From Bacteroidales bacterium (GTDB lineage: Bacteria; Bacteroidota; Bacteroidia; Bacteroidales; UBA932), in NCBI GenBank assembly GCA_017430365.1, contig JAFRNC010000009.1, positions 161,804 through 225,803 on the forward strand: a stretch of 64,000 nucleotides of DNA, written 5' to 3'. Below, in pieces: positions 8,875-55,883 of the stretch. The position numbers and the translations under genes were made by a program. Numbering within the stretch: the first letter of the stretch is position 1; each line of letters opens with the position of its first letter. The notes under the pieces were generated by a model. The model did no database searches and had not been told where the DNA came from. It saw only the letters and a program-made list of their open reading frames with translations.

Positions 8875-8880
8875 GGAAGA

Positions 8881-12204: not shown

Positions 12205-12395
12205 CGGTTCTGGCAGGTCTTCTGACTTTCCCCGGTCCGCTCCGCCTTCCCGGGCATCAGCTTCGTTCCGGCCCGGCAGACGGGGGATGGCGAAGCGCCC
12301 AGTGGCGTTTTGGAAGCGGACCCTTTACGGGGATTACAGCTGCAGGTACAGTCCCGGTCTTTCACCGGATTCCCTTGCACCGGAGCGGCCAAATG
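12205..12395 (-). promoter_or_regulatory. Cobalamin (B12) riboswitch, 5' leader of the TBDT / CbiK-lipoprotein / DASS operon
   Basis: The reverse complement reads GGGAATCCGGTGAAAGACCGGGACTGTACCTGCAGCTGT ... GCCACTGGGCG ... GGGAAGGCG ... B12 box AGTCAGAAGACCTGCC (plus-strand 12212-12227). Confidence 0.85.
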
Positions 12396-12418
12396 CCGCC
12401 CGGTTACCAAAACCGATG

Positions 12419-12426
12419 CAAATATA
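12419..12426 (-). promoter_or_regulatory. -7 promoter box (TATATTTG) for the riboswitch-2 operon
   Basis: Matches TAnnTTTG on the minus strand, about 25 nt upstream of the riboswitch. Confidence 0.5.
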
Positions 12427-12446: not shown

Positions 12447-12454
12447 TATCTTTG
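12447..12454 (+). promoter_or_regulatory. -7 promoter box (TATCTTTG) for the riboswitch-3 operon
   Basis: Matches TAnnTTTG on the plus strand, about 30 nt upstream of the riboswitch. It sits back to back with the minus-strand box. Confidence 0.5.
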
Positions 12455-12484
12455 CCGCCGGTTTCGGTGTCCACCGCCACCTGC

Positions 12485-12632
12485 CGGGGCGGGGAAGAAT
12501 AGGGAATCCGGTGAGAATCCGGAGCAGACACCGCTGCTGTCAGTCCTGCTAAACGCCTTGACAATCAATGGTCACTGTCCTTCAGGGGGCGGGAAGACGT
12601 CAGGGATGGGACAAGCCAGAAGACCTGCCGTA
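12485..12632 (+). promoter_or_regulatory. Cobalamin (B12) riboswitch, 5' leader of the TBDT / lipoprotein / cbiA / ABC importer operon
   Basis: Reads AATAGGGAATCCGGTGAGAATCCGGAGCAGACACCGCTGCTGT ... GTCACTG ... GGGAAGACG ... B12 box AGCCAGAAGACCTGCC (12614-12629). Confidence 0.85.
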
Positions 12633-12680
12633 ACCTTGATAGGAATGAAGCTTTCGGGTAATAAAAGCTTGCCGGATCCG

Positions 12681-41461: not shown

Positions 41462-41941
41462 ATGAAGAAACTTATCCTCTGCTGCCTGCTGCTGGCCGGA
41501 CTGTCATCCGCAGGCTTCGCCCAGAATATCGAAGTGGGCGCCCAGGCTCCCGATTTCTCCGCCATGAAGATTGACGGCAAAACGTTCACTCTATCCTCGC
41601 TCCAGGGCAAATATGTCGTTCTCGACTTCTGGGGCAGCTGGTGCAAGTGGTGCATCAAGGGTTTCCCCGACATGAAAGAGGCATACGCAAAGCATAAGGG
41701 CAAGGTGGAATTCGTGGGCATCGCATGCCGCGATACCGAAGAGAAGTGGAAGGCCGCCACTGCGAAATATGAGCTTCCCTGGATCAGCGTCCTGAATCCT
41801 GCCGCGAACGATCTTGTCAAAGTGTATGAAGTGAAGGGTTTCCCGACCAAGATAGTCCTCGACCCGCAGGGCAGGATCGCCAAGGTCATACTCGGTGAAG
41901 ATCCCGAGTTCTATACTTATCTTGACTCAGTTCTAAAATAG
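41462..41941 (+). CDS. TlpA/ResA-like thioredoxin-fold protein
   Basis: MKKLILCCLLLAGLSSAGFAQ signal peptide. CxxC motif FWGSWCKWC. The gene starts 24 nt after dsbD. Confidence 0.8.
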   Translation: MKKLILCCLLLAGLSSAGFAQNIEVGAQAPDFSAMKIDGKTFTLSSLQGKYVVLDFWGSWCKWCIKGFPDMKEAYAKHKGKVEFVGIACRDTEEKWKAATAKYELPWISVLNPAANDLVKVYEVKGFPTKIVLDPQGRIAKVILGEDPEFYTYLDSVLK

Positions 41942-41964: not shown

Positions 41965-42000
41965 GCCGGGGCCATCCGTGAAGGGTGGCTTCGTCTTTTT
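41965..42000 (+). terminator. Probable intrinsic terminator
   Basis: GCCGGGGCCATCC-GTGAA-GGGTGGCTTCG followed by TCTTTTT. Confidence 0.5.
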
Positions 42001-42070: not shown

Positions 42071-42580
42071 ATGAAAAAGTTTTTCAGTACCATCCTTATT
42101 GGCATTTGCGCAGCATTTGCATTATGTTCCTGCGAAACGATGGATCCCGAAAATGATTTTGGCGGGACTCCTTACGGTTTCTGGGTTGTTGACAAACTTG
42201 TAGTCGAAGCTTCTGTAACCATCAACGGTAATACGACCTCCACCACGAACACGACAGACTTTTCTTCCGAATACTGCCGCCTGAATCTTGATACCTCGCA
42301 CCTGGCTACGCTTTGGTTCAATTTCGAATTCCCGGATGTCGAGAGTTTTACCTATGATGAATCGAAAGAGATGATTTATTTCAAAAAGGGACTCGACAAA
42401 GGCGACAACGGTAAGGCCATCGTCCTCCTCGGTGCCTATGAAGTCATCATGAAAGGCGACACCATGATGCTCCGCCAGCCTGAGGCCGCCGTCGGCGTTC
42501 TCGGATACGGTGCCAGCGAACGGGCAACCTATTATTTCCATCGCGCACCCAAGACCGAAAAACCCAGGGAGACCAACTAA
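42071..42580 (+). CDS. Small lipoprotein, unknown function
   Basis: 169 aa. Lipobox AFALCSC followed by the acidic stretch ETMDPENDF. Confidence 0.6.
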   Translation: MKKFFSTILIGICAAFALCSCETMDPENDFGGTPYGFWVVDKLVVEASVTINGNTTSTTNTTDFSSEYCRLNLDTSHLATLWFNFEFPDVESFTYDESKEMIYFKKGLDKGDNGKAIVLLGAYEVIMKGDTMMLRQPEAAVGVLGYGASERATYYFHRAPKTEKPRETN

Positions 42581-42607
42581 TCGATTGTTTCGGTAAGCGT
42601 CAATGAG

Positions 42608-42643
42608 CCGGGACCATCCATAACGGGTGGCCCCGACTTTTTT
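42608..42643 (+). terminator. Probable intrinsic terminator, sequence-related to 41965..42000
   Basis: CCGGGACCATCC-ATAAC-GGGTGGCCCCG followed by ACTTTTTT. Confidence 0.5.
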
Positions 42644-42709
42644 GAGGGGAGGCTTCGGAAAATCTGTAGTATTGGGTAGAAAGTAATTTTTTGCCTAAAT
42701 CTTTAATTT

Positions 42710-43039
42710 ATGACAGTCAAACACTTCATCAAGATGATGTCCCTGGCCCTGGTCATTATGCTCGGATCCGCGCAGCTGGCCTCGGCGCAGAACATCACGC
42801 TGAACTTTGACAGGACGCCGCTCAAGACCGTCCTGAACGAGATCCAGAAGCAGGTGGACTACACGTTTGTCTACAACGACCAGCAGGTCGGTGCCGACAA
42901 ACCGGTCACCATCCACGTCCAGAATGCCGGCCTGACCGCCGTTCTCGACCAGATGCTCAAACCTTTGAACATCAACTACAAGATTCTCGACAAACAGATC
43001 GCCCTCTCACCGGCCGCAGCAACTTCGACGTCCAGATGA
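42710..43039 (+). CDS. Signal peptide plus STN (secretin/TonB N-terminal signalling) domain, encoded as a separate ORF; probably the detached N-terminus of the following SusC-like gene
   Basis: 109 aa. Signal peptide MMSLALVIMLGSAQLASAQ. STN-like stretch ITLNFDRTPLKTVLNEIQKQVDYTFVYNDQ...LNINYKILDKQIAL. The stop TGA overlaps the next ATG (ATGA at 43036-43039). Confidence 0.7.
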   Translation: MTVKHFIKMMSLALVIMLGSAQLASAQNITLNFDRTPLKTVLNEIQKQVDYTFVYNDQQVGADKPVTIHVQNAGLTAVLDQMLKPLNINYKILDKQIALSPAAATSTSR

Positions 43040-46000
43040 CCTACAGCCGCATGTTCATCGAAGGTGCGGTGGTTACCGGTTATCAGGAGATTCAGCAGAA
43101 GAAAGTGACGGGTGCCATCGCCACGGTCAATTCCAAGACCATCGAGGAGCGTTACACCCCGAGCCTGATGCAGAACCTCGAGGGCCGCGTGGCCGGTCTT
43201 TCGACCTATGGCGGCAAGCTTACAATCCGCGGTGTCAGTTCCATGTACGCCGAGGCCAATCCGCTCCTCGTGGTGGACGGCCTGCCGATGGAAGGCTCCA
43301 TCGACGACCTGAACCCCTACGACATCGAGAGCATCAACGTGCTGAAAGACGCGGCCGCCGCGGCAATCTACGGCGCCCGTGCTTCCAACGGTATCATCGT
43401 CATCACGACCAAGAGCGCCCGCGAGAAAGGCAAGATCGACGTGGACTTCTCCACCAACGTCACGGTCTTCTCCAAGCCCGACATGGACTATGCGCACAAC
43501 TTCTATATGAATGCCGAGCAGCAGGTCGCCCTGGAGAAGAACTACTACGACTACTATTACTTCCACAACGAAGGCGAGGTTACGAATCCGGGCCAGTCGA
43601 TGGAACAGAATCTGTTGTCCGGTTCGGGTTATATTTCCCCAATCGACTATGCCTACTACCGTATGTTCATCGGCGAAGGCACTCAGGCTGAGATCGACCA
43701 GCTCTGCAACCAGCTCTCAAAGAACAATTTCGCGCAACAGTATGCCGACGCGGTTTTTCGCCGTCAGCTGCTGCAGCAGTACAACCTGGCCCTGCGCAGC
43801 CGTTCCGACCGATTCCAGAGCAACTTCGTCGTGAACTGGCGCAACGACAACGCCGGCATCATCAATACATTCGAACGGCAGATGCAGATCAGCTACAAAG
43901 GTTCCTACGATGTCACCAAGTGGCTGACCGCCACCGTGGCCGTCAACGGAATTTACGGCAATCAGCGGGCTAAGGGCTTTACCTACAACGGCTTCGAAAG
44001 CCCCTGGATGACGCCTGCCTATGAAAGTCTTTACAATGCAGATGGTTCCACCAAACTGCTCTATACCTGGTACAACGGCAACCAGTACAGAGACAATACC
44101 GAAGGTGGCTATTTCAAGGAAACCGGCATCAACCTGGTGGACGAGTACTATAACAATGTGATGAACACCAAGCGCCAGTACATGCGTTACCACGGCGACC
44201 TGCTTTTCAAGATTGTAAAGGGCCTGACGGCCAATGCGCAGTTCGTCTATGAGACCGACCACCGCACAGCCGACTGGTACGCCACTCAGGACAGCCAGGC
44301 TGCCAAGACGATCTACAATGCCTATACCGAGGTCGATCCTTACGGCAACGTGACGCATCTTACTCCTGCTTCCGGCGGTTTCCGTGCTGCCCAGAATGTG
44401 GACGGCCGCTACTGGACCGCCCGCGGCCAGCTCAACTATGCAGGCACCTTCGGCAAGCACGAAATCGTGGCCCTGGCCGGTCTGGAATTCCGCGAGACTC
44501 TCTATTCCGGCACCAGCGCCCTGATGCTGGGCTATGACGACCAGTTGCAGAACGCTTCGACGGCGACCATCGACTTCTCGACCATCAGCCAGATGCGCTA
44601 CAGCAGCAACTATATGGCGCTCGGCGGCGGCTTCCCGGCTGTTCAGTTCGCCTACGACCCGTATATCCGCAGCAATATGGACCCTGTGGTCGAGCAGCAT
44701 CACCGCTACGCTTCCGGTTACGCAAACTTTACCTACACCTATGACGAGAAGTACAACGTCTTCGGCTCCTTCCGCAAGGACTACGCTGATGTGTACGGCC
44801 TGAACGTGAAGCTTCGCGGCCGTCCGCTCTGGAGTGCCGGTGTGGCCTGGAACATCAACAACGAAGAATTCCTCAAGCCGGTCAGCTGGATCAATGCACT
44901 CAAGCTCCGTCTGAGCTACGGTGTCACCGGTAACATTTACCAGGGCGCCACCAGCTATATGACTGCCACCAGCACAGGCCTGAACTACTATACCAACGAG
45001 CCGTTCGGTACCATCCAGAGCCCGGCCAACCCGAACCTCAAGTGGGAGCGGACGCTGACGACCAATGTCGGTCTCGACTTCTCGTTCGTTGAAAACCGTT
45101 TCCGCGGCTCCCTCGACTACTACCGCAAGGTCGGCAAGGACCTCTTCTCCTACAAGACGCTCGACCCGACCACCGGTTTCACCTCGATGTTCATGAACGT
45201 GGCCGATATGGTCAACAACGGTGTGGAACTCACTTTCACTGGCGACTGGATCCGTGAACGCCGCCGCAGCGATTTCGGTTGGAGCAGCACCCTGACCTTC
45301 GCCGTCAACAAGAACAAGATCACCAATGTGGAGAACGCTTCCACCAAGGCCTATGAATTGATCTCCAATCCGTATGTCGTCGGCTATCCGACAAGTGCCC
45401 TCTGGAGCTGGCAGTTCGCCGGCATCAGTGAGGCTGATGGAGAAAAAGGACAGACGCTCTGGTATTCCGATAACGACCGCAAGACGCACAGTGCCCAAAG
45501 CGGAAGTGTCGACATCATGAAATATTCCGGCCAGGCTGAGCCTGTAGTTATAGCCGGCCTGGATAACCGCTTCACCTGGAACGGTCTTAGCCTGAGTGTC
45601 CTGATGGCTTACTACGGCGGTCACGTGATGCGTGCCCTGGCGGAAGATGAGACCTTCGGCGTCGGTAGCGGACTGGCTGTCCCCAGTTATTTCCTCAATG
45701 CCTGGACGCCGGAGAACAAGACCAATACCCCGGGTATCGGCCGCTATTCCTCCAATGCACTCGGCCGAGAACCCAGTACGAGCGACATCTCGGTCCGCAA
45801 CGCAGCCTTCCTGAAAATCCGCAACATCGTGCTGGGTTATGAACTGCCCGAAAACTGGGTCCGCAAGATCGGTGCTTCCCGCGCGAACCTGCAGTTCCAG
45901 ATCGATAATCTGCCGGCCCTCTGGACGGCCTTCAACCCGGGTCGCGACATCCCGTATTATGAAAAGGGCGTCCGTTTCGATCCCGAGACCCTCGGCATCC

Positions 46001-46044
46001 CGCAGCGCAGTTCCTATATCTTCGGTCTCCACATCAACTTCTAA
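43036..46044 (+). CDS. SusC-like TonB-dependent transporter (plug plus barrel), with no signal peptide of its own
   Basis: 1002 aa. Plug motifs VVTGYQEIQQKKVTGAIATV, LEGRVAGL and IESINVLKDAAAAAIYGARASNGIIVITTK. The C-terminus is IFGLHINF. It is followed by a SusD-like gene. Confidence 0.85.
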   Translation: MTYSRMFIEGAVVTGYQEIQQKKVTGAIATVNSKTIEERYTPSLMQNLEGRVAGLSTYGGKLTIRGVSSMYAEANPLLVVDGLPMEGSIDDLNPYDIESINVLKDAAAAAIYGARASNGIIVITTKSAREKGKIDVDFSTNVTVFSKPDMDYAHNFYMNAEQQVALEKNYYDYYYFHNEGEVTNPGQSMEQNLLSGSGYISPIDYAYYRMFIGEGTQAEIDQLCNQLSKNNFAQQYADAVFRRQLLQQYNLALRSRSDRFQSNFVVNWRNDNAGIINTFERQMQISYKGSYDVTKWLTATVAVNGIYGNQRAKGFTYNGFESPWMTPAYESLYNADGSTKLLYTWYNGNQYRDNTEGGYFKETGINLVDEYYNNVMNTKRQYMRYHGDLLFKIVKGLTANAQFVYETDHRTADWYATQDSQAAKTIYNAYTEVDPYGNVTHLTPASGGFRAAQNVDGRYWTARGQLNYAGTFGKHEIVALAGLEFRETLYSGTSALMLGYDDQLQNASTATIDFSTISQMRYSSNYMALGGGFPAVQFAYDPYIRSNMDPVVEQHHRYASGYANFTYTYDEKYNVFGSFRKDYADVYGLNVKLRGRPLWSAGVAWNINNEEFLKPVSWINALKLRLSYGVTGNIYQGATSYMTATSTGLNYYTNEPFGTIQSPANPNLKWERTLTTNVGLDFSFVENRFRGSLDYYRKVGKDLFSYKTLDPTTGFTSMFMNVADMVNNGVELTFTGDWIRERRRSDFGWSSTLTFAVNKNKITNVENASTKAYELISNPYVVGYPTSALWSWQFAGISEADGEKGQTLWYSDNDRKTHSAQSGSVDIMKYSGQAEPVVIAGLDNRFTWNGLSLSVLMAYYGGHVMRALAEDETFGVGSGLAVPSYFLNAWTPENKTNTPGIGRYSSNALGREPSTSDISVRNAAFLKIRNIVLGYELPENWVRKIGASRANLQFQIDNLPALWTAFNPGRDIPYYEKGVRFDPETLGIPQRSSYIFGLHINF

Positions 46045-46056
46045 GACATCCGTGCC

Positions 46057-47487
46057 ATGAAAAAGATATTTGTTATCCTGACTACCTGCCTGCTGCTGGC
46101 CTCCTGCGCCGAGTTCACCGAACTGCAGCCCAAAGGCATGAACCTGCTTTCCACCGTCGATGAGCTGGAACTCCTGCTCAACGCCGAGTTTGAAGGCCCC
46201 ACTTCGGATATGAAACGGATGTGCGGCGATATGATCAGCTATGCCAACATTCCCAACGAACTGGCTTCGCCGACACCGTCGCGCTATACCATAATGCTGA
46301 CCTGGGACGAGTCGAAAATCGAGACTTTCAATGATTTGACGGCCGGCGACGGCGATTATACTTCCATGTACGGTTTCATCGGCAGGGTATGCAACCCGAT
46401 CCTCAGCCGTATCGGTGACGCAACGGGCGACGAGTCCAGAAAGAACCAGCTGAAGGCCGAAGCCTATACCATCCGCGCCTGGGCCCAGTATATCCTGGTC
46501 AACAAGTTTGCGGCAGCTTACAATCCTTCTACCGCAGCCAATACGCCGGGTATCCCCATCCTGCTGGAAGACTGGGACATCTCCGAGCCTACCGAAGTCT
46601 GGACAGTCGCCGAGGTGTATGACCAGATCATCGCCGACTGCGACGCCGCAATCGCCCTTAACGCACTTCCGCTGAACAATGTCAACCGGATGCGCATGAG
46701 CAAGGCCTGCCCGTACGCCGTCAAGGCGCTGGCGCTGATGGCCATGCAGAAATTCGACGAGGCGGAGTCAGTCGCCAAGCAGGCGCTCGACATCAACGGT
46801 ACCGTTTCGGATTATCTGGATGCCGCGCATACCACCATCACTACGGGCTATATAATCGGCGGTCAGTATCCTTCCCTGTATCTGGCCAAACTCGAACAGG
46901 AAGAAGACTACTTCCATACCTACGATATCATTTTCTACGAGGCCGTCAGCCAGGAAGGTGTCGCGCGCTTCGAGCCCGGCTATGCCACCTATTCCCGCAT
47001 GTCCAGCATGGATATGATGTACGACTATATGATGGGCGGCGAAATGATGACCGGCGTTCCCTGTTTCATGACCTTCGACCTGAACTCCAGCTGGAACACC
47101 TACGGCCTGAAGACGCCGCATATGTACCTGACCGTCGCCGAGTGCGAAATCCGCAAGGGGAACATCGACGAAGCCATGAAGTATCTTGACTTCATCCGCG
47201 TGAAACGCGTCGAGCCCGCCATGTATGCCCCGCTGCAGGGTAACGTGTCCACGAAGGCTGACGCGATCGCCCACCTGAAGCAGGTGTCGCACGGCGAATT
47301 CGTGTATACCCCGTACAACTTCATCATCCGCAAGCGCTGGAATCAGCTCGACGATATGAAGGAGACCTTCACCCGCGAACTGGCCGGCAAGACCTATACG
47401 CTGACACCCGATTCGAAGATGTGGATCTTCCCGTTCCCCAAGAACGCGATGAGCAACAACGCCAACATCGTTCCGAACAACCTTTAA
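46057..47487 (+). CDS. SusD/RagB-family lipoprotein
   Basis: 476 aa. Lipobox LLLASC. The gene sits 12 nt after the SusC-like gene. Confidence 0.8.
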   Translation: MKKIFVILTTCLLLASCAEFTELQPKGMNLLSTVDELELLLNAEFEGPTSDMKRMCGDMISYANIPNELASPTPSRYTIMLTWDESKIETFNDLTAGDGDYTSMYGFIGRVCNPILSRIGDATGDESRKNQLKAEAYTIRAWAQYILVNKFAAAYNPSTAANTPGIPILLEDWDISEPTEVWTVAEVYDQIIADCDAAIALNALPLNNVNRMRMSKACPYAVKALALMAMQKFDEAESVAKQALDINGTVSDYLDAAHTTITTGYIIGGQYPSLYLAKLEQEEDYFHTYDIIFYEAVSQEGVARFEPGYATYSRMSSMDMMYDYMMGGEMMTGVPCFMTFDLNSSWNTYGLKTPHMYLTVAECEIRKGNIDEAMKYLDFIRVKRVEPAMYAPLQGNVSTKADAIAHLKQVSHGEFVYTPYNFIIRKRWNQLDDMKETFTRELAGKTYTLTPDSKMWIFPFPKNAMSNNANIVPNNL

Positions 47488-47496
47488 GCTATTGAA

Positions 47497-49461
47497 ATGA
47501 AAAGGTTATTTCTTACCCTTTCCCTGCTGCTCTGCTGTTTTCTGGGCCTCAACGCCCAGAAAAAGCAGGCGGTAAGCGTGCTGTATGTGGGCGGCTCGGC
47601 CGACTTGGAAACGATGGGCCTGGAAGTGAAGCCCGACCCCGCGGTACTCGCCAGGAGCGCTGCCGAGCGCACCGCCGCTTTCGAGAAGTTCCTCAAGAAG
47701 AACTTCAAGACCGTCAAGGTAGTCGATGCCAAGGACTATCATTACTCGATGTCCGATTATTACGACGTGACCATCCTGGACGGAAAGCCTGAACCGATTG
47801 CACCCGGCATCCGCGACGTGGATGAACACGGCCGCCTGGTCCGGTATGCGCTGCCCCAGTATTTCCCGCTCGATTTCAACCGGCCTGTGATTACCATCGC
47901 CAATTTCGGTGAAGACCTTGGCAGGCGCATCGGCACCAAGAATGACTGGTACTGCCTCTGTCTCCAGGACATGGCCCTTGGCTGGAACGCTTCGCATCCC
48001 ATTTTCCAGGGCCCTGTGAAAGTGACACTCGAAACATCGATGCAGCCGACTCCTGCTCCCGCCCTTGAAATCGCGCAGATGATGGGTGAGACCCTGCCGG
48101 CCGAGACCGAGATGTTCCGGATGCAGACGGTCAATTTCGAGCAGAACCGTGACTACCGCATCGGCATGGTCTCACGTCCGGGCGGTTATCTCGATTCGCC
48201 TGAGGCCGAAGTTATAACCGGCGGCAAATGCGACAAGAGTATCGACGCCGTGGCCATCGGCCGTCACGCCAACTGGCTGACCTGGGGTTTCTCCGCCTCG
48301 CCGGCCTATATGACCGAGACAGCCAAGGCACTCTTTGTCAACGCTATCGTCTATATGAAACAGTTCGCTGGACAGCATCCCATCGCCCGGAAGTTCAATG
48401 ACGGTGTCTCCACACGTGACCATATAGCGATGGAGCGCAACCGTATGAGCCGTGCCATGTGGGAGGCCAACAACAAGGCCAACGCCGATTTCAACCGGAT
48501 GGTGGACAGCCTGAAAGCCGTCATCAAAGATCAGAAAGCGCGTGGGGAAGCTGTTGACCCCAATATGGCCATCTATGAGAATTTCCCTGCTCAGAAATTG
48601 TTGACTTATAGGGAATTCCTTATGCAGATGGATCGTGGCAAGGGCCTCTATGCCGTTTTCGGCACTGACGAGAAGGCCTATAAGGACTACTATGACAAGA
48701 ATTACGGCTGGTTCTGGTGTCCCAACGGCTCCTATGAGCTTGCCATCGACGACGAGGTCCGCTATCTGGGCATTCCGAACAATGACATCCGCATCCTCGA
48801 CAAGTGCATCTCGATGCTCGAGAAGAACGATCCGGAGAAGGACATTGCCGAAACAATTCTGAAACGCTACACGCTCTGCCGTTTCGAAACCGCGAAAGAG
48901 TGGCGCGACTGGTACAACCGCTATCACGACAAACTCTTTTTCACGGAGAGCGGCGGCTACCTCTGGCTGGTCAATACCTTTGAAAATGTACCTGGCAACG
49001 ACTACCGTGTGCGTCTGGCCGAGGAAGAAGAGGCTTATATGCTGGGCAGGGATTCCCGCCTCCGCGGGAATGACGGTCCGGCCTCGCTGACCGACGACCG
49101 CAACCCCGTATATCTCCAGGCCAAGGCTGTCAATACCGATAAGGGCAAGGATATCGTGGTCTTCCAGAAGATCCATCCCGGTTATCACACCTATGCCGTG
49201 GTACCTGCGGATGAGGTTTTCGTCGTGACGACCGTCGAGATCGAACTGCCTGCCGGTTATGAGAAAGTAGGGCCCCTCTATCTCCCCGAAGCCGGCCTGC
49301 TCGACGCTTCCGGCACGACCGTATACCGCGGCACAGGCGAATTCCGCCAGTCGATCCAGGGCAGGGGCGAGGGCGATGCCATCGTCAAAATCACCTACCA
49401 GTGCTGCAATAACAACACCTGCCTGGTGCCCGAAACCAAAACCTTTACCGTAAAACTTTAA
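47497..49461 (+). CDS. Secreted protein of unknown function with a C-terminal DsbD-alpha-like (DsbD N-terminal type) domain
   Basis: 654 aa. Signal peptide present. The C-terminal roughly 110 aa end in KITYQCCNNNTCLVPETKTFTVKL, which resembles the DsbD alpha motif (compare VEWQACNDENCIPP in the DsbD of this window). Confidence 0.6.
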   Translation: MKRLFLTLSLLLCCFLGLNAQKKQAVSVLYVGGSADLETMGLEVKPDPAVLARSAAERTAAFEKFLKKNFKTVKVVDAKDYHYSMSDYYDVTILDGKPEPIAPGIRDVDEHGRLVRYALPQYFPLDFNRPVITIANFGEDLGRRIGTKNDWYCLCLQDMALGWNASHPIFQGPVKVTLETSMQPTPAPALEIAQMMGETLPAETEMFRMQTVNFEQNRDYRIGMVSRPGGYLDSPEAEVITGGKCDKSIDAVAIGRHANWLTWGFSASPAYMTETAKALFVNAIVYMKQFAGQHPIARKFNDGVSTRDHIAMERNRMSRAMWEANNKANADFNRMVDSLKAVIKDQKARGEAVDPNMAIYENFPAQKLLTYREFLMQMDRGKGLYAVFGTDEKAYKDYYDKNYGWFWCPNGSYELAIDDEVRYLGIPNNDIRILDKCISMLEKNDPEKDIAETILKRYTLCRFETAKEWRDWYNRYHDKLFFTESGGYLWLVNTFENVPGNDYRVRLAEEEEAYMLGRDSRLRGNDGPASLTDDRNPVYLQAKAVNTDKGKDIVVFQKIHPGYHTYAVVPADEVFVVTTVEIELPAGYEKVGPLYLPEAGLLDASGTTVYRGTGEFRQSIQGRGEGDAIVKITYQCCNNNTCLVPETKTFTVKL

Positions 49462-49500
49462 CCTGTCATTTCCGGTTTGACCGGGAATATCACAACAATC

Positions 49501-50676
49501 ATGAAAAAAATACTTTCAATCATTTTCGCCGTTGCCGCCCTCTGTGCCTGCTCCAAACAGCAGCACGGCTACGTCATCAAGGGCCAGGCAGGCGATCTGG
49601 ACGGAAAGGCCGTTCTCTCGTATGCTCTCCCGGATGGCACTGCCGTCAATGATACTGTAGCGATGAACAAAGGCCGCTTCACCTTCAAGGGCTCGGTGCC
49701 CGATGTGGTGATCGGCTCCGTCGCCCTGCTTCCTGCCGGTGAGGACCCCATGCATACCAATGTCTATGTCGAAAACTGCCCGTTGACGATGAATATCAAT
49801 CTGGACAAGGTGATCGACTATGCCCGCTACGGCGGCAAGTTCCTGTCTGATGTCACCACGACAGGCGGCCCGAACAACGAGTTCGCCGATAAACTGCAGA
49901 ATGTGCGTACGGTTGTCGGACAGCGTCCCGAACTCAAAGAGGTTGCCGCCGCCATCGATGAAGTGGAGTCGATGGGTTATTCCGACATGGCCGCCTATCA
50001 GCAGAAACAGGCTGAAATCCAGAGCAAGTTTGCCGATCAGTTGGAGTCTTATTACAATGCGGTTGAGGAAGAGACCAAAAAACTCATAGCAGCCAATCCG
50101 GATGTCGAGGCCGCGGCCTATATGTTCAACCGCTATTACAACGATGCCGGCACGGAGGAATTTGAAGAAGCCTTTAATAAGTACAGCGAGAAAGTCCGCA
50201 ACAGCTTCCTGGCAGCGGAAGCCCGCGAAGAACTCGCCGCCCGCAAGGCGACGCAGCCGGGCGCCCAGGCTCCGGATTTCACGCTGAACGATCCCGAAGG
50301 CAAACCCGTGACCCTCTCGTCGCTTCGCGGCCAGTATGTCATCGTGGATTTCTGGGCATCCTGGTGCAAGCCCTGCCGCGCAGGTATGCCGGCCATGAAG
50401 GAACTGTATAAGAAATATCACCCCAAGGGTCTGGAAATCATCGGTGTGTCCGACGATACCGACCACAATGCATGGAAAAATGCCATCGAGCAGGACCAGA
50501 CTCCCTGGATCCACGTAGTCGACGAATTCCCGATCGAAAACAGACCCGCACGTGTCGGTTTGCTCTACGGCGTCCACTACATCCCTTCATATTTCCTGTT
50601 GGACAAGGAAGGCAAGGTCATAGGCAAGATGGAGCACGAGGAACTGGAAACCAAACTTGCTGAGCTTCTCGACTAA
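49501..50676 (+). CDS. TlpA-like thioredoxin-fold lipoprotein with an N-terminal DUF4369-like domain (paralogue 1)
   Basis: MKKILSIIFAVAALCAC lipobox and CxxC motif DFWASWCKPC. I prefer the ATG at 49501 over the track start at 49477. Confidence 0.8.
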   Translation: MKKILSIIFAVAALCACSKQQHGYVIKGQAGDLDGKAVLSYALPDGTAVNDTVAMNKGRFTFKGSVPDVVIGSVALLPAGEDPMHTNVYVENCPLTMNINLDKVIDYARYGGKFLSDVTTTGGPNNEFADKLQNVRTVVGQRPELKEVAAAIDEVESMGYSDMAAYQQKQAEIQSKFADQLESYYNAVEEETKKLIAANPDVEAAAYMFNRYYNDAGTEEFEEAFNKYSEKVRNSFLAAEAREELAARKATQPGAQAPDFTLNDPEGKPVTLSSLRGQYVIVDFWASWCKPCRAGMPAMKELYKKYHPKGLEIIGVSDDTDHNAWKNAIEQDQTPWIHVVDEFPIENRPARVGLLYGVHYIPSYFLLDKEGKVIGKMEHEELETKLAELLD

Positions 50677-50693
50677 TTGTCTTTATAATTGAT

Positions 50694-51851
50694 ATGAAGA
50701 AATCATTCTTTACTGCAGCGGCGGCCCTTGCGGCCGCCCTGCTCGTTTCCGCCTGCGGCGGGAACGGTTATACGATCGAAGGCGTCGTGGAAGATTCCGC
50801 CCTTGAAGGCTCGAAAGTCTATAAGATGGACGGTTTCAATATCGCCGATTTCGTGGCTGATCCGACACAATCCATGCCGATGGATTCCACCATTATACAG
50901 AATGGAAAGTATGTTTTCACCGGCAAGGTTTCTGAACCGGATTATTGCATGATCTACGTCGGTGACATGAGCGCAGGAAATCCTGCAGCACATGCAATTG
51001 CCGTCATTGAACCGGGCGCCAGGGTCAGTGTCGTCACCGATGCAGGCCACAAGACCCGTGTTTCGGGGACGCCGTCGAATGATCTGGCCCAGCGGAATGC
51101 CGATGAATACGACCGCCTGACAGACCAGTTCATGCCGCTTTATGAACGCATTGGATCCGGCGAGGCCGATGCCGAAGAATCCGCCCGCCTCGAAAAGCAG
51201 ATGGATGAAATCCGCGCGCAAATGCAGGAGGCCGATTATCGCTTCGTCAAGGAAAATATCAACAATCCTGCGGCATGGTACAAGTTGTATAACGTCGGCG
51301 TGACTGCGGCGATGGAAGACGATGCGGTAGCTAAGTTGAAAGATCTGATTGCAGGGGCGGAAGGGAGCACGAAAGAACGTGTCGACTATAAGGGTATCGT
51401 CGACCGCATCGCGGTCCTGGAACGCACGGCCGTCGGCCAGCCTTTCACTGATCTGGCCATGGAAGATCCCGACGGGAACATGATGCATCTTTCTGACTAT
51501 GCCGGCAAGGGCAAATACATCCTCGTCGATTTCTGGGCCTCCTGGTGCGGCCCCTGCAAGGCCGAGATGCCCCATGTCGTGGAATTGTACAATAAGTACA
51601 GGGACAAAGGCTTCGATATCGTGAGCGTGTCGTTCGACAGCAAGAAAGAGAACTGGCTGAAGGCCATCCCCGAATGGGGCATGACCTGGCATCATATGTC
51701 GGATCTCAAGGGCTGGGGCAGTGAAGGCTCATCAGCCTATGCGGTGAACGCAATACCCCACACGGTCCTCCTTGGCCCGGACGGCACTATTCTCGCCCGC
51801 AACCTGACTGGTGACGCCCTCGCCGCCAAACTTGCTGAACTGTTGAAATGA
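50694..51851 (+). CDS. TlpA-like thioredoxin-fold lipoprotein (paralogue 2)
   Basis: Lipobox LLVSAC and CxxC motif DFWASWCGPC. Same three-part architecture as paralogue 1. Confidence 0.8.
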   Translation: MKKSFFTAAAALAAALLVSACGGNGYTIEGVVEDSALEGSKVYKMDGFNIADFVADPTQSMPMDSTIIQNGKYVFTGKVSEPDYCMIYVGDMSAGNPAAHAIAVIEPGARVSVVTDAGHKTRVSGTPSNDLAQRNADEYDRLTDQFMPLYERIGSGEADAEESARLEKQMDEIRAQMQEADYRFVKENINNPAAWYKLYNVGVTAAMEDDAVAKLKDLIAGAEGSTKERVDYKGIVDRIAVLERTAVGQPFTDLAMEDPDGNMMHLSDYAGKGKYILVDFWASWCGPCKAEMPHVVELYNKYRDKGFDIVSVSFDSKKENWLKAIPEWGMTWHHMSDLKGWGSEGSSAYAVNAIPHTVLLGPDGTILARNLTGDALAAKLAELLK

Positions 51852-53080
51852 AGGCCATGAAACGGATGGTTTTTATCTGCGGCTTTGCAGCCGCCCTGCT
51901 TCTTCTGGCCGGATGTGCCGATGAGGCAGGTAGATTCCGGATTGATGGAACTTTCTACGGAGATGTGGAAGGCAAAACGGTTTATCTGACCCGCGCAGGC
52001 GTGGATCCGGAAAGTCGTTGGCAGCCGGAGGTGCTCGACAGTACGGTCATCAGCAATGGCAGGTTCAGTTTCAGCGGGTCCGTGGAAGAGCCGACATTGC
52101 TCATAATCAAGTATTTTCCCGATGAAAGGCGGGCGGCTGCCGATGACCGGGGCGTCATCATGCATCCGGTCGTCCCGCTCCTTATTGACGGAGGGAATAT
52201 CCAGGTGGAAGCCGCGGTCGACAGTCTGCCGAGTGATTTCCTGTTTTATGCCTATGGCAATTATGATTATCGCCATGCCAGAACTGCCGGGTCTCAGCTC
52301 AACAGTCATTATCAGGAATACCAGCAGGAATATTCACGTCTGAAGGATCTTGCTTCAGATATATCCGACCGGTTTAACCAGCGGTATTATTATGAAAAGG
52401 ATGCGACGATAGACTACATCGTAACTGAACTGGATAAACTGGATGCCGCCAAGGCGGATGAAAGGGCTTACCTGAGCGGCTTCATTACCCGGAACCGGGA
52501 CAATGCGGCCGGTTTGATGTCCCTTTCCGAGACGCTCGACCTGTTCAGCAAGGACGAAATCGAAAGCCTTGTGGAAACGCTCTCTCCGAAAATGAAAGAT
52601 ACTCCGCTGGGAAAAGCCGTGATTGAACGTGCTTCCGTCATTGCCAATACGGCTAAAGGGTCACAGTTCGCCGACGTTACGCTCATAGATCCTTCGGACG
52701 GACATCATCAGCTTTCGGAATATCTGGGTAAAGGCAATTATACCCTGTTGGAATTCTGGGCCTCGTGGTGCGGTCCCTGCCGCAGTTCGATTCCTCATCT
52801 CAAGGAAGTTTACTCTCTCTATCATCCGTCGGGTTTCGACATCGTGAGTGTTTCGATGGACGACAAACTTGACGCCTGGAAAAAGGCAGTGGACGAGGAA
52901 CGGATGCCCTGGACGCAGCTCGGCTGCGAAGACGGCTTCGGTGAAGTCGCCAGGATCTACAATTTCAACGGTATTCCATATTGCGTACTCATCGGTCCCG
53001 ACGGCGAAGTGGTGGAAACCAACTGCCGCGACGCCCGCCTCGACCGCCAGCTTGTGAACCTTTACGGTAACAAGTTTTAA
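51848..53080 (+). CDS. TlpA-like thioredoxin-fold lipoprotein (paralogue 3)
   Basis: Lipobox LLLAGC followed by ADEAG. CxxC motif EFWASWCGPC. ATGA overlap with paralogue 2. Confidence 0.8.
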   Translation: MKAMKRMVFICGFAAALLLLAGCADEAGRFRIDGTFYGDVEGKTVYLTRAGVDPESRWQPEVLDSTVISNGRFSFSGSVEEPTLLIIKYFPDERRAAADDRGVIMHPVVPLLIDGGNIQVEAAVDSLPSDFLFYAYGNYDYRHARTAGSQLNSHYQEYQQEYSRLKDLASDISDRFNQRYYYEKDATIDYIVTELDKLDAAKADERAYLSGFITRNRDNAAGLMSLSETLDLFSKDEIESLVETLSPKMKDTPLGKAVIERASVIANTAKGSQFADVTLIDPSDGHHQLSEYLGKGNYTLLEFWASWCGPCRSSIPHLKEVYSLYHPSGFDIVSVSMDDKLDAWKKAVDEERMPWTQLGCEDGFGEVARIYNFNGIPYCVLIGPDGEVVETNCRDARLDRQLVNLYGNKF

Positions 53081-53118
53081 GCCTGCGACCCGTTTTCCTC
53101 CGGGCTGCGGGTATTTTT

Positions 53119-53229
53119 CGCTGCAACGGACGCAACTGTCTTTCAGATACTTATGCAAAGTGATCCCCCTCAAAACGAGGGGGATCACTTTGCATAACAA
53201 CCTGATTCATAAGTGTGTCCGTTGCAGCG
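53119..53229. repeat. 111-nt nested palindromic intergenic element, copy D (longest inner stem)
   Basis: Runs CGCTGCAACGGACGCA ... TTATGCAAAGTGATCCCCCTC-AAAAC-GAGGGGGATCACTTTGCATAA ... TGTGTCCGTTGCAGCG. It sits between convergent genes. Confidence 0.9.
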
Positions 53230-53276
53230 CAAGAAATGCAGAGGGCGGAAGATGAGGGCGGAAGATGGGGGCGGAA

Positions 53277-54299
53277 TCAGCGAAGTTCGACTTCGGTGGG
53301 ACTCGTGATGCGGGACTTGATTCCGCAGGTGATGTCGAGGAGTGTGAGGACCTGCTGGAGCGATTCGCTGCGGAAACTGGCAGTGAAGGTGTTGTTCATC
53401 ACGCGGGCGTCGGCCACTGTGATGTCGACGCCGTACCAGCGCTCCATCTTCTTTATGACTTCGCGGATAGGCGTATTATCAAACACCAGGTAGCCGTCTT
53501 TCCACGAAGTGTTGAGACGCATGTCGGCAGCCTTTCGGGCAGGTTTCTCCAGTTTGGACGTAGCGCCGACGACCACTTCCTCCTTTTCTTTTACGATGAC
53601 CTCGGTATCGTTCTTTTCATCGAGAAGGGTTACTTTGCCGCGGACCAGGGTCAGTTTCAGCGCGGCGTCGTCGCTGTAGGTCGAGAGATTGAATTCGGTG
53701 CCGGTGACCTTTACCGTCACGCCCTTGCTCGTCCGCACGTACATCGGCCAGTCGGGATTTGTTTCGACCTTGAAGTAGCCCTCTCCTTCGAGTTCGACCA
53801 CCCGCTTGCCGTTTTCGAATCTGGCAGGCGTACGGAGAGTACTGGCGCTGTTGAGAATCACTTCGCTGCCGTCGGGCAGGGTGATCTTGCCCTTTACGCC
53901 GGGATTGACCTTATAGTTGAGGACGGATTCTCCCTGGACAAGTTCGGGAATGGCGATGAGTTTCTCGTTCTGGGCGGTCAGGCTCATCACTTGTTTGTTG
54001 AGGCGGGAATTGTCGTGCAGGACCCAGAGGAAAGCTCCGACGACAAAGACGGCGGCAGCGGCTGCGACGGCTCGCAGGAAACTGATCCTGCGCCGATGAG
54101 GCGCAATCGTTTCCAGCATCTGGGCGGTCGCGGCATGCGACGGTGCGGCGTCGGGCATGGAGTCGAAGACGAAATCCGCTTCGCGGCGCAGGAACTCTTC
54201 CTTGTTCTCGGGAGAATCCTGCACCCACGCGAGGACTTCGCGCCGCTCTGCCTCAGTGGCCGTGCCGGCGAAGTAGCTATGGAGTGTAGCCTCTTTCAT
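53277..54299 (-). CDS. FecR-family anti-sigma factor
   Basis: MKEATLHSYFAGTATEAERREVLAWV... N-terminus, TM segment AAAAAVFVVGAFLWVL, and FecR motif ITLPDGSEVILNSASTL. The track start at 54326 is an alternative. Confidence 0.85.
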   Translation of the reverse strand: MKEATLHSYFAGTATEAERREVLAWVQDSPENKEEFLRREADFVFDSMPDAAPSHAATAQMLETIAPHRRRISFLRAVAAAAAVFVVGAFLWVLHDNSRLNKQVMSLTAQNEKLIAIPELVQGESVLNYKVNPGVKGKITLPDGSEVILNSASTLRTPARFENGKRVVELEGEGYFKVETNPDWPMYVRTSKGVTVKVTGTEFNLSTYSDDAALKLTLVRGKVTLLDEKNDTEVIVKEKEEVVVGATSKLEKPARKAADMRLNTSWKDGYLVFDNTPIREVIKKMERWYGVDITVADARVMNNTFTASFRSESLQQVLTLLDITCGIKSRITSPTEVELR

Positions 54300-54344
54300 T
54301 TTACCACCAATAATACCGATATCCATATACTTCCCCTCAAAAAA

Positions 54345-54923
54345 TCATTTGAAAAGTGACAGTTTGTTGCGGAATTGCTTCAGGGCTTTCACCATGTTAT
54401 ACTCCACCTTCTTGACCGTAAGGCCGGTTGACTCCGCGATTTCCTCGTAGGTCATGTTCCCGTCGCGGTTCATCACGAAAATCCTGCGGGTGAGTTCGGG
54501 GAGTCTTTCGTATACAAGGTCGATAATCCGCTTCATGTCCATGGCATCGATTCGCGATATCACGTGTTCGCTGCTCAAACTCTCTATCGACAGGTTCACG
54601 GAATCCCTCTCCAGGGGATCTGTGAGCCTTGTCCGCAGGGAACTCAGGTGATTTAGAGCCTTGTTGCGGGCGATGGTGAAGAGGAATGAACGGATATTGC
54701 GCTGCGGATCGATGCGGTCGCGGTTGGTCCATAGCGAAGCGAAGGTCTCCTGCGCCAGGTCTTCGGATTCCGCTCCGTCGTGGACGTAGTGCCGGATGAA
54801 AAACTTGACGTTCTCATACTCCGCCTTGAACAGCACTTCGTAAGCCTCGGTGTCCGAAGCCTTGATGGCTTCTGAGAAGACCCTGAGGATTTCCCGGTCA
54901 CTGCTGTTGTAATACGGAGGCAT
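54345..54923 (-). CDS. ECF-type RNA polymerase sigma-70 factor
   Basis: 192 aa. Region 2 (EDLAQETFASLW) and region 4 (TYEEIAESTGLTVKKVEYNMVKAL). Confidence 0.85.
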   Translation of the reverse strand: MPPYYNSSDREILRVFSEAIKASDTEAYEVLFKAEYENVKFFIRHYVHDGAESEDLAQETFASLWTNRDRIDPQRNIRSFLFTIARNKALNHLSSLRTRLTDPLERDSVNLSIESLSSEHVISRIDAMDMKRIIDLVYERLPELTRRIFVMNRDGNMTYEEIAESTGLTVKKVEYNMVKALKQFRNKLSLFK

Positions 54924-54938
54924 GTAGGATAGATTGTC

Positions 54939-55883
54939 CTACAAAGATAAGATAAAATGGATAAAGCAGACGAGCAGCACCATCAGTATTTCAGCCAGGC
55001 GGTTGACGCGGACTGCGCGTTCCATGTCTTCTGTTGTCAGCGGGCGGGCGTGTTCGCCTATCCACGGTTTCCAGACCTCCTTGCCGAAATAGTTGTGCGG
55101 TCCTCCGAAGCGGCAGTCGAGTATTGCGGCAAGGGCGGCTTCCGGATGACCCGAATTGGGGCTCAGATGGAGCTGGCCGTTCTTGTGCACCCACGCGATC
55201 TTACCGGGTTTTCCGCCTGCGAGAAGCATCAGTAAGGCGGTCAGCCGCGCCGGAATCCATCCGGCCACGTCGTCAAGCCGGGCGGCGACGCGTCCGAACT
55301 CGAGATAGCGTTCGTTGCGGTAGCCTATCATGGAGTCGAGCGTATTGACCATCTTGTAGGCCATCATCCCCGGGACCCCGAGCAGGGCGAGCCAGAAGAG
55401 CGGGGCGATGACGCCGTCGTTGAGGTTTTCCGCCAGGGTTTCGAGGGCTGCGGTGCGGATCTCCTGGGCCGACAGCTCCGATGTGTCCCGTCCGACTATG
55501 CGCGCCACCTGCTTCCGTCCTTCTTCCAGGGATCGGTCCACGGCACGGAATACCTCACGGACTTCGCGGATGAGCGTGGTTCCCGCCAGGCAGAAGAAGA
55601 TAAGTACGGCTTCAGTGACCCATTGGAGCCATCGGCCCAGATGGATGGCTTCGCCTGCAAGCTTGAGGCCGCGGAGCAGGAAAAATGTCACGAGAAATGT
55701 ACCGGCTACCAGTGCGATGGTCATCCAGGCTCCTTTCCGGCGGCGGTTCTCACCTTTGTTCCAGCGTTTCTCTCCTGCAGCTATCAGTTTTCCGAAACCG
55801 ACGACAGGGTGGGGCAGCCCTGCCGGATCGCCCAGAAACAGGTCGGCCAGCCAGCCGGCCAGAAGGGTAAAGATACGGCTCAT
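54939..55883 (-). CDS. cbiB: Adenosylcobinamide-phosphate synthase
   Basis: 314 aa. MSRIFTLLAGWLADLFLGDPAGLPHPVVGFGKLI is a typical CbiB/CobD-family N-terminus. Confidence 0.85.
   Translation of the reverse strand: MSRIFTLLAGWLADLFLGDPAGLPHPVVGFGKLIAAGEKRWNKGENRRRKGAWMTIALVAGTFLVTFFLLRGLKLAGEAIHLGRWLQWVTEAVLIFFCLAGTTLIREVREVFRAVDRSLEEGRKQVARIVGRDTSELSAQEIRTAALETLAENLNDGVIAPLFWLALLGVPGMMAYKMVNTLDSMIGYRNERYLEFGRVAARLDDVAGWIPARLTALLMLLAGGKPGKIAWVHKNGQLHLSPNSGHPEAALAAILDCRFGGPHNYFGKEVWKPWIGEHARPLTTEDMERAVRVNRLAEILMVLLVCFIHFILSL
54942..54949 (-). promoter_or_regulatory. -7 promoter box (TATCTTTG) embedded in the last codons of cbiB, upstream of the ECF sigma gene
   Basis: Matches TAnnTTTG on the minus strand, 19 nt upstream of the ATG at 54923. 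Confidence 0.4.

Follow-up and report, generated by a model that had tools for sequence, protein, structure and literature searches.

A large share of the SusC/SusD pairs of the Bacteroidota has no linked carbohydrate enzymes. Signalling through an STN extension of SusC is known from the host-glycan polysaccharide utilisation loci (PULs) of Bacteroides thetaiotaomicron and from the ccf locus of Bacteroides fragilis; RagAB is a peptide importer, and FusA/FusC serves the import of ferredoxin together with an M16 protease. In the periplasm of Escherichia coli, the reduction of CcmG/TlpA-type proteins by the alpha domain of DsbD is an established pairing. Here we analyse a locus of a Bacteroidales bacterium (GenBank assembly GCA_017430365.1, contig JAFRNC010000009.1, positions 161,804 to 225,803) in which such elements stand side by side: a SusC/SusD pair, an extracytoplasmic function (ECF) sigma factor with a FecR-family anti-sigma factor, and a set of envelope thiol-redox genes. 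The whole stretch of 64,000 nucleotides is referred to as the window, and coordinates are those of the window unless a related locus is named.

A full-text literature search yielded no functional study of SusCD/DUF4369-TlpA/DsbD loci, in agreement with a preliminary description of this DNA, made from its letters, which knew of no assigned function for such loci. The only mention, a speculative one, is found in a 2026 preprint on a Muribaculaceae DUF4369-thioredoxin lipoprotein that lies beside TonB-dependent transporters and was linked with a high-fat diet, where oxidative stress and iron were speculated upon. In a transcriptome study of iron limitation, the DUF4369 protein BT_0239 of B. thetaiotaomicron changed only about 1.6-fold.

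A SusC/SusD locus with thiol-redox genes

Gene assignments in the window are based on the listing and translation of open reading frames (ORFs) and on Pfam and NCBIfam scans. The locus begins with two ORFs derived from SusC: an STN-only ORF of 109 aa (42710-43039, + strand; Pfam STN, 50.6 bits), consisting of a signal peptide and an STN/FecR_C-like signalling domain, and the plug and 22-strand barrel body of a SusC/RagA protein (43036-46044, +; 1002 aa), which has no signal peptide. A SusD/RagB-family surface lipoprotein (46057-47487, +; 476 aa; Pfam SusD-like_3, 56.3 bits against a cut-off of 27) starts 13 bp 3' of SusC and is followed by a secreted protein of 654 aa, which we call P654 (47497-49461, +), whose only Pfam match is DsbD_N at residues 547-652 (37.5 bits against a cut-off of 25). 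Three tandem genes for lipoproteins with a DUF4369 and a TlpA/ResA-like domain come next, namely lipoprotein 1 (49501-50676, +; 391 aa, WCKPC), lipoprotein 2 (50694-51851, +; 385 aa, WCGPC) and lipoprotein 3 (51848-53080, +; 410 aa, WCGPC), all assigned with both Pfam and NCBIfam. The opposite strand carries a FecR-family transmembrane anti-sigma factor (53277-54326, -; 349 aa; Pfam FecR 49 bits, FecR_C 68.9 bits) and an ECF sigma-70 family factor (54345-54923, -; 192 aa; Sigma70_r2 59.8 bits, Sigma70_r4_2 44.8 bits).

The ORFs and their domains thus confirm the series of SusD, a 654-aa protein with a DsbD-alpha-like end and three WCxPC TlpA-like lipoproteins that the preliminary description had given, together with its convergent FecR/ECF sigma pair. 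Its statement that the locus is free of glycoside hydrolases and lyases is likewise borne out: neither these nor any other domain of a carbohydrate-active enzyme (CAZyme) was found in any ORF between 41.4 and 55 kb, and the nearest CAZyme, a GH95 (32039-34375, -), lies outside the conserved block. Because it lacks a CAZyme, the locus is not a PUL in the CAZy/PULDB sense, in which SusC/SusD are accompanied by at least one linked carbohydrate-active enzyme.

Synteny and gene fusions among the Bacteroidota

To describe how widely the locus is shared, we followed P654. A word-indexed protein search returned 611 homologues, nearly all of 630-665 aa, which are annotated as "hypothetical" or "DsbD N-terminal domain-containing"; a pattern scan of genomes, one for each species, gave at least 271 that carry relatives, and a profile search of 1.84 billion representative proteins found 936 relatives of the N-terminal region. 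The closest relatives belong to the rumen and gut Bacteroidales metagenome-assembled genomes (MAGs) RUG12415 (91%) and UBA3290 (89%). Carriers include Segatella copri, Prevotella, Phocaeicola, Bacteroides gallinaceum, Muribaculaceae/Duncaniella, Odoribacter, Alistipes and Dysgonomonadaceae and, outside the Bacteroidales, Sphingobacterium nematocida and a MAG of the flavobacterium Sinomicrobium.

ORFs were called in 83 loci and assigned by phmmer against the window proteins, and adjacency was counted in the 40 loci that extend for at least 8 kb on both sides. In these, P654 has SusC as a neighbour in 39 loci, SusD in 37, FecR in 34, a TlpA-like gene in 29 and DsbD in 5, and an ECF sigma gene stands beside it in at least 29 of the 40, a lower bound that comes from a single-sequence query. 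The order of the genes varies by clade: in Prevotella and Segatella SusC comes after P654, and in Muribaculaceae and Phocaeicola P654 comes after the TlpA genes. The order is shuffled and the adjacency preserved, which argues for functional linkage. Clustering of all unassigned neighbour ORFs revealed no further conserved family, the recurrent ones being divergent SusD genes or lineage-specific housekeeping genes, and no CAZyme family recurs in 80 related loci. All genes of the locus are under purifying selection between species (pN/pS 0.05-0.13).

The same modules also occur within single proteins. P0150 and P0164 are fusions of about 1000 aa in which DUF4369-TlpA precedes the N-terminal domain of P654 and DsbD_N, while P0163 and P0264 present the reverse order, with the N-terminal domain and DsbD_N ahead of TlpA; the P0163 fusion adjoins ECF, FecR, STN-SusC, SusD and further TlpA genes. 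Versions of P654 of about 485 aa that lack the alpha domain exist as well, and in the one locus of this kind that was retrieved (L092) two TlpA-like genes and a separate gene for DsbD_N alone (154 aa) come after the gene for the N-terminal domain. The three modules are therefore found both fused and split, and in both orders, and this argues strongly, on comparative grounds, that they form one functional unit. Taken together, the SusC synteny and the gene fusions place the association far beyond chance.

As judged by this comparison, the locus is a conserved Bacteroidota type made of known modules in a new combination. The preliminary description had tied the thiol-redox genes to SusCD and to ECF/FecR, and the synteny in the 40 loci and the fusions between P654 and DUF4369-TlpA agree with it. 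It had also named a lack of synteny in any relative as a reason to abandon its view, and the adjacency of P654 to SusC and SusD in nearly all of these loci is the reverse of that.

Several further features of the related loci were observed. Two P654 genes or two SusC/SusD sets stand in tandem in L008, L066, L069 and L072, a second SusC with its own ECF/FecR is present in L023, L025 and L027, and L024, L037, L040, L074 and L081 encode DUF4369-TlpA proteins of double length (750-780 aa). Given these arrangements, the module is prone to duplication and fusion. Contigs with SusC/SusD/P654 are also filed under Lachnospiraceae, Clostridium sp. CAG:302, Paenibacillus, Acutalibacteraceae and Waltera (L044, L048, L058, L076, L080, L082); contigs of Bacteroidota origin have almost certainly contaminated these bins. 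In three distant lineages the immediate neighbour of the locus is a gene for an M16 (insulinase-type) peptidase of about 950 aa, in a metagenome chromosome (L030:14243-17122, -), a Muribaculaceae MAG (L032, 4875-7682) and the Sinomicrobium MAG (L079, 13652-16447), which is a weak hint toward a peptide cargo.

P654 combines a DsbD-alpha domain with a CxC domain

P654 carries a signal peptide ending in A-Q, the signal-peptidase-I pattern that is usual for Bacteroidota, and it has neither a lipobox nor a domain of the type IX secretion system (T9SS); for these reasons a periplasmic location is predicted. The full-length protein was modelled with AlphaFold2 (AF2) from 42 homologues (pLDDT 89.9, pTM 0.84), and a second AF2 model covers residues 21-527 (pLDDT 84.3). 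The protein is divided into three parts, an alpha/beta domain (~22-300), a helical domain (~300-520) and an Ig-like domain of the DsbD-alpha type (~535-654).

Foldseek matches the C-terminus to the DsbD-alpha structures 3pfu, 1jpe and 6dnv of E. coli and Neisseria (E 2.8e-5, prob 1.0), and the N-terminal domain of ScsB is also among the matches (rank 17). A profile search of PDB sequences returned the same DsbD-alpha proteins, matched only by the alpha part of P654. The cysteine pair C637-x4-C642 is invariant in 42 P654 sequences, and the strand that carries it aligns with the one bearing QACNDENC in the DsbD of this genome. In the model and by its profile match, the C-terminus is a predicted DsbD-alpha domain (PF11412) with an Ig-like fold and a catalytic Cys pair.

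The alpha/beta domain, on the other hand, matches folds of the class I glutamine amidotransferase (GATase1) type, with Foldseek probabilities of 0.92-1.0 and E-values down to 4.6e-5 (3fij, 1gpm, 8rp2, 1qdl and 1t0b). The kinds of proteins matched are lin1909/peptidase C26-like proteins, the GATase domains of GuaA and PabA/TrpG, Pdx2, ThuA-like proteins and the GIFT domain of IFT52. For residues 21-527 no Pfam family was found when 19 members were scanned at E-values up to 10, and no NCBIfam family. An amidotransferase or peptidase identity was not adopted for P654, since the hhalign comparison with PabA was not significant. Near-invariant across 267 members are C153 (217/218), C155 (232/233), H167, E238, K247 and R256, as well as W263-G264, D418 and W472, and the CxC lies on a strand other than that of the canonical amidotransferase nucleophile. 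The P654 family is an undescribed protein family.

The DUF4369-TlpA lipoproteins probably face the periplasm

Pairwise identity among the three DUF4369-TlpA proteins is only 28-29%, indicating that they are old paralogues. They have lipoboxes, a conserved I/F-P and matches to Pfam AhpC-TSA, Redoxin and Thioredoxin_8, and all three show the WCxxC motif, the cis-Pro loop and the export that characterise a thioredoxin fold of this kind. The best PDB relatives of lipoprotein 1 are ResA and Bacteroides thiol-disulfide oxidoreductases. None of the three is an equivalog of ResA/CcmG or of rhizobial TlpA: their NCBIfam scores for ResA are 98.6, 86.4 and 64.4 bits against a cut-off of 170, and the best score for TlpA is 76 bits against 230.

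Lipoproteins of Bacteroidota are directed to the surface by acidic residues after the lipobox cysteine. Lipoprotein 1 (49501-50676) has no acidic export signal in this place, and 33 of 45 DUF4369-TlpA lipoproteins have no acidic residue in the first five positions after the cysteine. Because they mostly lack such residues, these lipoproteins probably face the periplasm, which suggests a position where DsbD-derived electrons would be available to them.

Relatives have between 0 and 4 TlpA-like copies. Two DUF4369-TlpA genes are present in each of L004 and L007, the second copy in L005 and L006 encodes 406-408 aa, and blastn gave no match to lipoprotein 3 (51848-53080) in L001, L004 or L007.

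The sigma factor, the anti-sigma factor and the STN domain

All parts of a trans-envelope signalling chain are found in the window: an ECF factor with regions 2 and 4, a FecR protein with the FecR and FecR_C domains, and an STN domain. Across the related loci, the presence of STN on SusC tracks the adjacency of FecR/ECF, and SusC proteins without the STN extension sit in loci without FecR/ECF. This co-occurrence and joint absence is what a single signalling unit of STN and FecR/ECF would produce. Domain logic and adjacency suggest that the sigma factor controls the adjacent operon.

An expectation-maximisation (EM) motif search in 48 non-redundant regions 5' of the SusC/P654 operons gave no ECF promoter motif; the only signal that it picked up was coding conservation at the C-terminus of FecR. 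Just 5' of the SusC start, the intergenic block GAGGGGAG...GGAAAATCTGTAGTATTGGGTAGAAA (42644-42683, +) is conserved only among close relatives, as seen in the alignment of the upstream regions of the window, L001 and L004-L007. This block is a candidate promoter/operator of the SusC operon.

A recent 238-bp deletion has split SusC

The preliminary description had listed STN-SusC as one gene. The STN domain and the SusC plug and barrel domains are indeed found, but in two separate, frame-shifted ORFs. The SusC body scores 479.5 bits with TIGR04056 (cut-off 368.25) and 59.8 bits with the TIGR04057 signature (cut-off 46.2), and Pfam detects both Plug and barrel, as in SusC/RagA proteins; no continuous ORF with signal peptide, STN, CarboxypepD_reg-like domain, plug and barrel is present in the window. 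Three-frame translation places STN and the SusC body in different frames, the STN stop overlapping the next ATG as ATGA. The STN-only ORF is the N-terminal remnant of SusC and ends in a frame-shifted tail (..AAATSTSR and the stop), and the barrel ORF begins with MTYSRMF... The TIGR04056 match begins only at profile position 79, which implies that the CarboxypepD_reg-like domain is absent.

Comparison with other alleles explains this structure. When aligned with the sister species (L001), the window has a clean gap set between two CGGCCGC copies, and with respect to an intact conspecific allele (L089:2416-5988), whose SusD protein is identical, the gap is exactly 238 bp. In the intact allele, two CGGCCGC copies flank the 238 bp, which encode a linker and the whole CarboxypepD_reg-like domain; in the window a single CGGCCGC marks the junction (43011-43017, +). 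The frame is shifted because 238 is not a multiple of 3. Intact SusC relatives have 1190-1192 aa with all domains, the conspecific allele having 1190; in all intact relatives examined the plug is preceded by the CarboxypepD_reg domain, and this in turn by an STN domain, or an N-terminal extension of similar length, wherever FecR/ECF adjoin. We propose that the deletion arose recently by slippage between the CGGCCGC repeats.

The split allele is common. At least 24 contigs (35 index blocks) of assemblies in the European Nucleotide Archive (ENA) encode exactly its 109-aa STN product, and among 23 contigs with an identical SusD about 21 have the split SusC and 2 the intact 1190-aa gene, so that broken and intact alleles coexist in the species. 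The window is 100% identical to ENA ERZ28654179 scaffold_75, and the exact 44-nt pattern of the deletion junction had no match in JGI metagenome contigs. An assembly artefact was rejected, as the allele is present on those contigs from many assemblies, some of which differ upstream. The deletion alleles are identical from an upstream ORF of 169 aa (described below) to the third TlpA gene, and the intact allele differs from the SusC body of the window at only 3 sites, all of them synonymous. The deletion is therefore recent, and a long-standing pseudogene was rejected on the same observations. While the locus itself is identical, the upstream flanks of the deletion alleles differ by 2-7%, a pattern that points to a recent sweep of the deletion allele or to its spread by recombination.

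Without a signal peptide, the barrel product should not be exported. The SusC barrel ORF is probably a recent pseudogene, and the import arm is most likely dead in this genome, with the redox genes still intact. Normal trans-envelope signalling has probably been lost or altered here: the preliminary description had taken the STN domain to imply signalling to the FecR/ECF pair, and this does not stand for the present genome, where STN is severed from a SusC body that has no signal peptide. The STN domain would here be a free periplasmic protein, and once freed and secreted it could act as a decoy on FecR, rewiring the activity of the sigma factor. The coexistence of broken and intact SusC within one species provides a natural knockout for association or competition studies.

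Genes upstream of the locus and in the rest of the window

Upstream lie a full-length DsbD-like membrane thiol:disulfide electron conduit (39416-41437, +; 673 aa; Pfam and NCBIfam) and a small secreted ResA/TlpA-like thioredoxin-fold protein with WCKWC (41462-41941, +; 159 aa; Pfam AhpC-TSA, Thioredoxin_8 and Redoxin), whose gene call was taken from the identical contig L084. The DsbD ORF has an Ig-like alpha domain (QACNDENC), transmembrane cysteines (TPCVFP, FSCTGP) and a gamma thioredoxin domain (CVNC), that is, the alpha/beta/gamma arrangement with three Cys pairs. Its Pfam matches are DsbD_TM (76.5 bits), Thioredoxin_7 (48.4 bits) and DsbD_N (22.4 bits, just below the cut-off), and its NCBIfam score of 113.8 bits, below the equivalog cut-off of 330, indicates membership at the family level and not an equivalog of the E. 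coli protein. The small TlpA scores 93.3 bits in the NCBIfam ResA subfamily (cut-off 170). This DsbD is the probable electron source for the module, and the pair of DsbD and small TlpA may be housekeeping. In L010 the pair lies between FecR and SusC, an arrangement that speaks against a housekeeping role.

The preliminary description had placed DsbD and a fourth TlpA-like gene immediately upstream. Both are present, but a 169-aa ORF and a hairpin intervene, and the adjacency is specific to one clade. A terminator-like hairpin (41967-41993, +; terminator scan) closes the DsbD/small-TlpA unit on its 3' side, and a second near-copy (~42607-42645) was identified in the sequence and the L001 alignment. 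The two copies bound an insertion of ~630 bp, absent from the sister species (L001), in which the 169-aa ORF sits (42071-42580, +; ORF call). It encodes a lipoprotein with an acidic stretch after the lipobox cysteine (C-ETMDPEND) and with no Pfam or NCBIfam match. Its GC content at third codon positions (GC3) is lower, 0.57, and homologues of about 170 aa (65-99% identical) are found in rumen Bacteroidales in unrelated contexts. These features suggest that it is a small gene that is mobile or hitch-hikes; a role as a core component was rejected, given its absence from the sister species and the unrelated contexts of its homologues.

In the related rumen Bacteroidales L097 (ENA ERZ1462501 contig-81_95) and L098 (ERZ28654344 scaffold_561), a cluster encoding NrfH, NrfA, ResB and CcsA (nrfHA-resB-ccsA, locus coordinates 6507-10311) lies between a DUF4369-TlpA gene and ECF/FecR. 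It may hint at a housekeeping role for the neighbouring reductases or be a coincidence.

The left third of the window is an island of corrinoid uptake and salvage. Three cobalamin riboswitches of 92-104 bits (7083-7278, -; 12195-12426, -; 12448-12646, +) precede operons with TonB-dependent receptors, PepSY_TM, CbiK, CobN, CobB/CobQ-like proteins and a periplasmic binding protein. On its right, the locus is adjoined by CobD and a CobC-like aminotransferase (54939-57208, -).

Discussion

From the gene content, folds, cysteines, synteny, fusions and the deletion, we infer the electron path, the cargo and the regulation of the locus as follows. With slightly better than even confidence, we propose that it encodes a DsbD-fed periplasmic thiol-exchange module acting on or processing the cargo of SusCD. 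Such a system would have three arms: a regulator (ECF, FecR and the STN domain of SusC), an importer (SusC/SusD) and a periplasmic thiol exchange formed by P654 and the DUF4369-TlpA proteins. A ligand bound by SusCD would signal through STN and FecR to the sigma factor and would be imported. Electrons, ultimately from cytoplasmic thioredoxin, would pass through DsbD and then move between the CxxC domains of the TlpA type and the DsbD-alpha Cys pair of P654. Their final acceptor would be a disulfide or oxidised group in the cargo, or else the CxC of P654, which would then act on the cargo. That the reductases serve the near-invariant cysteines of P654 itself is as possible as the reduction of an imported substrate. 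A more specific proposal, in which P654 and the DUF4369-TlpA proteins form an unrecognised periplasmic enzyme system that reduces or reshuffles oxidised SusCD cargo with DsbD-derived electrons, is tentative and, in our estimate, rather doubtful.

Several observations count against a thiol-exchange module for imported cargo. Many carriers are strict anaerobes, in which the need for reduction of periplasmic cargo is not obvious. An adjacent TlpA-like gene is missing in 11 of the 40 loci, and DsbD adjoins in only 5, those of the clade of the window, where it stands behind a terminator-like hairpin. The amidotransferase-like matches of P654 have weak TM-scores (0.4-0.59), and in the non-significant hhalign comparison with PabA the canonical positions would hold Ala/Asn and Ser/Ala; the secondary-structure order of P654 likewise assigns the canonical nucleophile and His/Glu positions to non-conserved residues. 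Finally, the importer is broken and the allele is nonetheless common, so the system is dispensable, at least in that habitat.

The competing account closest to this picture keeps the importer and changes the role of the thiols: P654 would be a Cys-dependent periplasmic hydrolase or transferase acting on a non-redox SusCD cargo, and its DsbD-alpha domain and the TlpA proteins would only keep its cysteine reduced, much as DsbG/DsbD protect single cysteines of the periplasmic L,D-transpeptidases of E. coli. We consider this rather unlikely. Residues of the triad type (C153, C155, H167, E238) are near-invariant within a GATase1-like fold, the pattern of conservation is that of an enzyme, numerous polar residues being invariant at 40-50% identity, the putative enzyme carries the alpha domain as part of its own chain and not as a free protein, and the TlpA copy number varies and is sometimes zero. 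The conserved residues, however, lie off the canonical nucleophile-elbow and His/Glu positions (in a weak alignment), no relation to any hydrolase family is detected at the sequence level, and up to four dedicated reductases seem many for simple maintenance. Readings in which import is incidental, or the cargo is a metal, are less likely than either this account or the thiol-exchange module. It is improbable that the locus is an envelope redox-stress regulon, in which SusC-STN/FecR/ECF would sense an oxidant or damage and TlpA/P654 would repair envelope proteins, in the manner of the CcdA-Etrx-MsrAB2 repair system of pneumococcus. The PDB relatives of lipoprotein 1 do include the pneumococcal thioredoxin-family structures 4hqz and 2yp6, which we take to be Etrx1/2, and the preprint on the DUF4369-thioredoxin lipoprotein speculates on oxidative stress and iron; but the loci have no conserved repair enzyme, be it Msr, a peroxiredoxin or another, the CxxC motif is of the reductase type and not peroxidatic, and the near-obligate linkage to SusC extends to STN-less, regulator-less versions, which argues for a transport-coupled role.

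The chance that the redox genes serve housekeeping cytochrome c maturation (system II, ResA/CcsX with DsbD) or the assembly of copper centres, and merely stand beside SusCD, is very small. The best NCBIfam match of the small TlpA is ResA, and nrfHA-resB-ccsA lies inside the same type of locus in L097/L098, so a housekeeping role is plausible for the upstream pair of DsbD and small TlpA, which, moreover, adjoins the locus only in the clade of the window and ends in a terminator-like hairpin. The three DUF4369-TlpA genes are very unlikely to have such a role: the window has neither ResB/CcsA nor a cytochrome gene near the locus, all ResA/TlpA equivalog scores fall below the cut-off, and adjacency alone cannot explain the fusion of DUF4369-TlpA to P654 in several lineages or the association of P654 with SusCD in 39 of 40 loci. 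Just as remote is a role in metals, with the CxC/His site of P654 binding a thiophilic metal (Cu(I), Zn or Fe-S) and the locus importing or handling a metal or metallophore, as ScsB/ScsC and TlpA-ScoI handle copper. The near-invariant C-x-C and His residues of P654 and its match to ScsB would fit such a role, and the FecR/ECF/STN logic is classical for the uptake of metal chelates; on the other side, no metal-related gene is conserved nearby and SusC/SusD pairs are not known as metal importers.

With its fixed core, a new conserved family and fusions that show the working partners, the locus offers a concrete handle on CAZyme-free SusCD pairs, and it is a widespread, experimentally tractable candidate to explain one class of them. 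If imported cargo is reduced, the roles of DsbD pathways would extend from folding, cytochrome maturation and repair to nutrient acquisition. This would be the first TonB-dependent nutrient import coupled to envelope thiol reduction and would provide a function for that class of loci.

Comparison with known systems

The regulatory and import arms resemble the ECF/anti-sigma-linked Sus-like loci of Bacteroides, which have the same ECF sigma factor, FecR-type anti-sigma factor and STN-bearing SusC beside SusD. In contrast to these, the locus has no CAZyme, sulfatase or glycan-processing gene, its accessory genes belong to thiol-redox chemistry, and in the window the STN domain is severed. A TonB-dependent importer with a dedicated periplasmic processing protein is also the plan of RagAB in Porphyromonas and of FusA/FusC with its M16 protease in Pectobacterium; here, however, the conserved core has no peptidase, processing would be thiol-disulfide chemistry, and a peptide cargo is only a guess.

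In its overall fold, the part of P654 at ~22-300 is similar to class I glutamine-amidotransferase-like proteins (C26/lin1909, PabA, GuaA, ThuA-like, GIFT). It differs from them in that the similarity is modest in TM-score, no family match is obtained and the canonical Cys/His/Glu appear not to be kept, P654 being a predicted periplasmic protein with a CxC of its own.

The redox arm can be likened to several reductive pathways of the DsbD type, CcdA-Etrx among them. ScsB/ScsC and the ScsB-PprX/TlpA system of Caulobacter likewise combine a dedicated DsbD-alpha-like donor with specialised thioredoxin-fold proteins, but the present locus has no copper-resistance or peroxiredoxin context, and its SusCD/ECF link and CxC domain have no counterpart there. 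With the DsbD pathway of E. coli and Neisseria (DsbD-beta to gamma to alpha to DsbC/DsbG/CcmG) it shares the DsbD-alpha fold with its Cys pair and partners of the TlpA/CcmG type, and a DsbD gene lies next door. The difference is that here an alpha domain is detached from DsbD, fused to a domain of 520 residues and tied to an outer-membrane importer.

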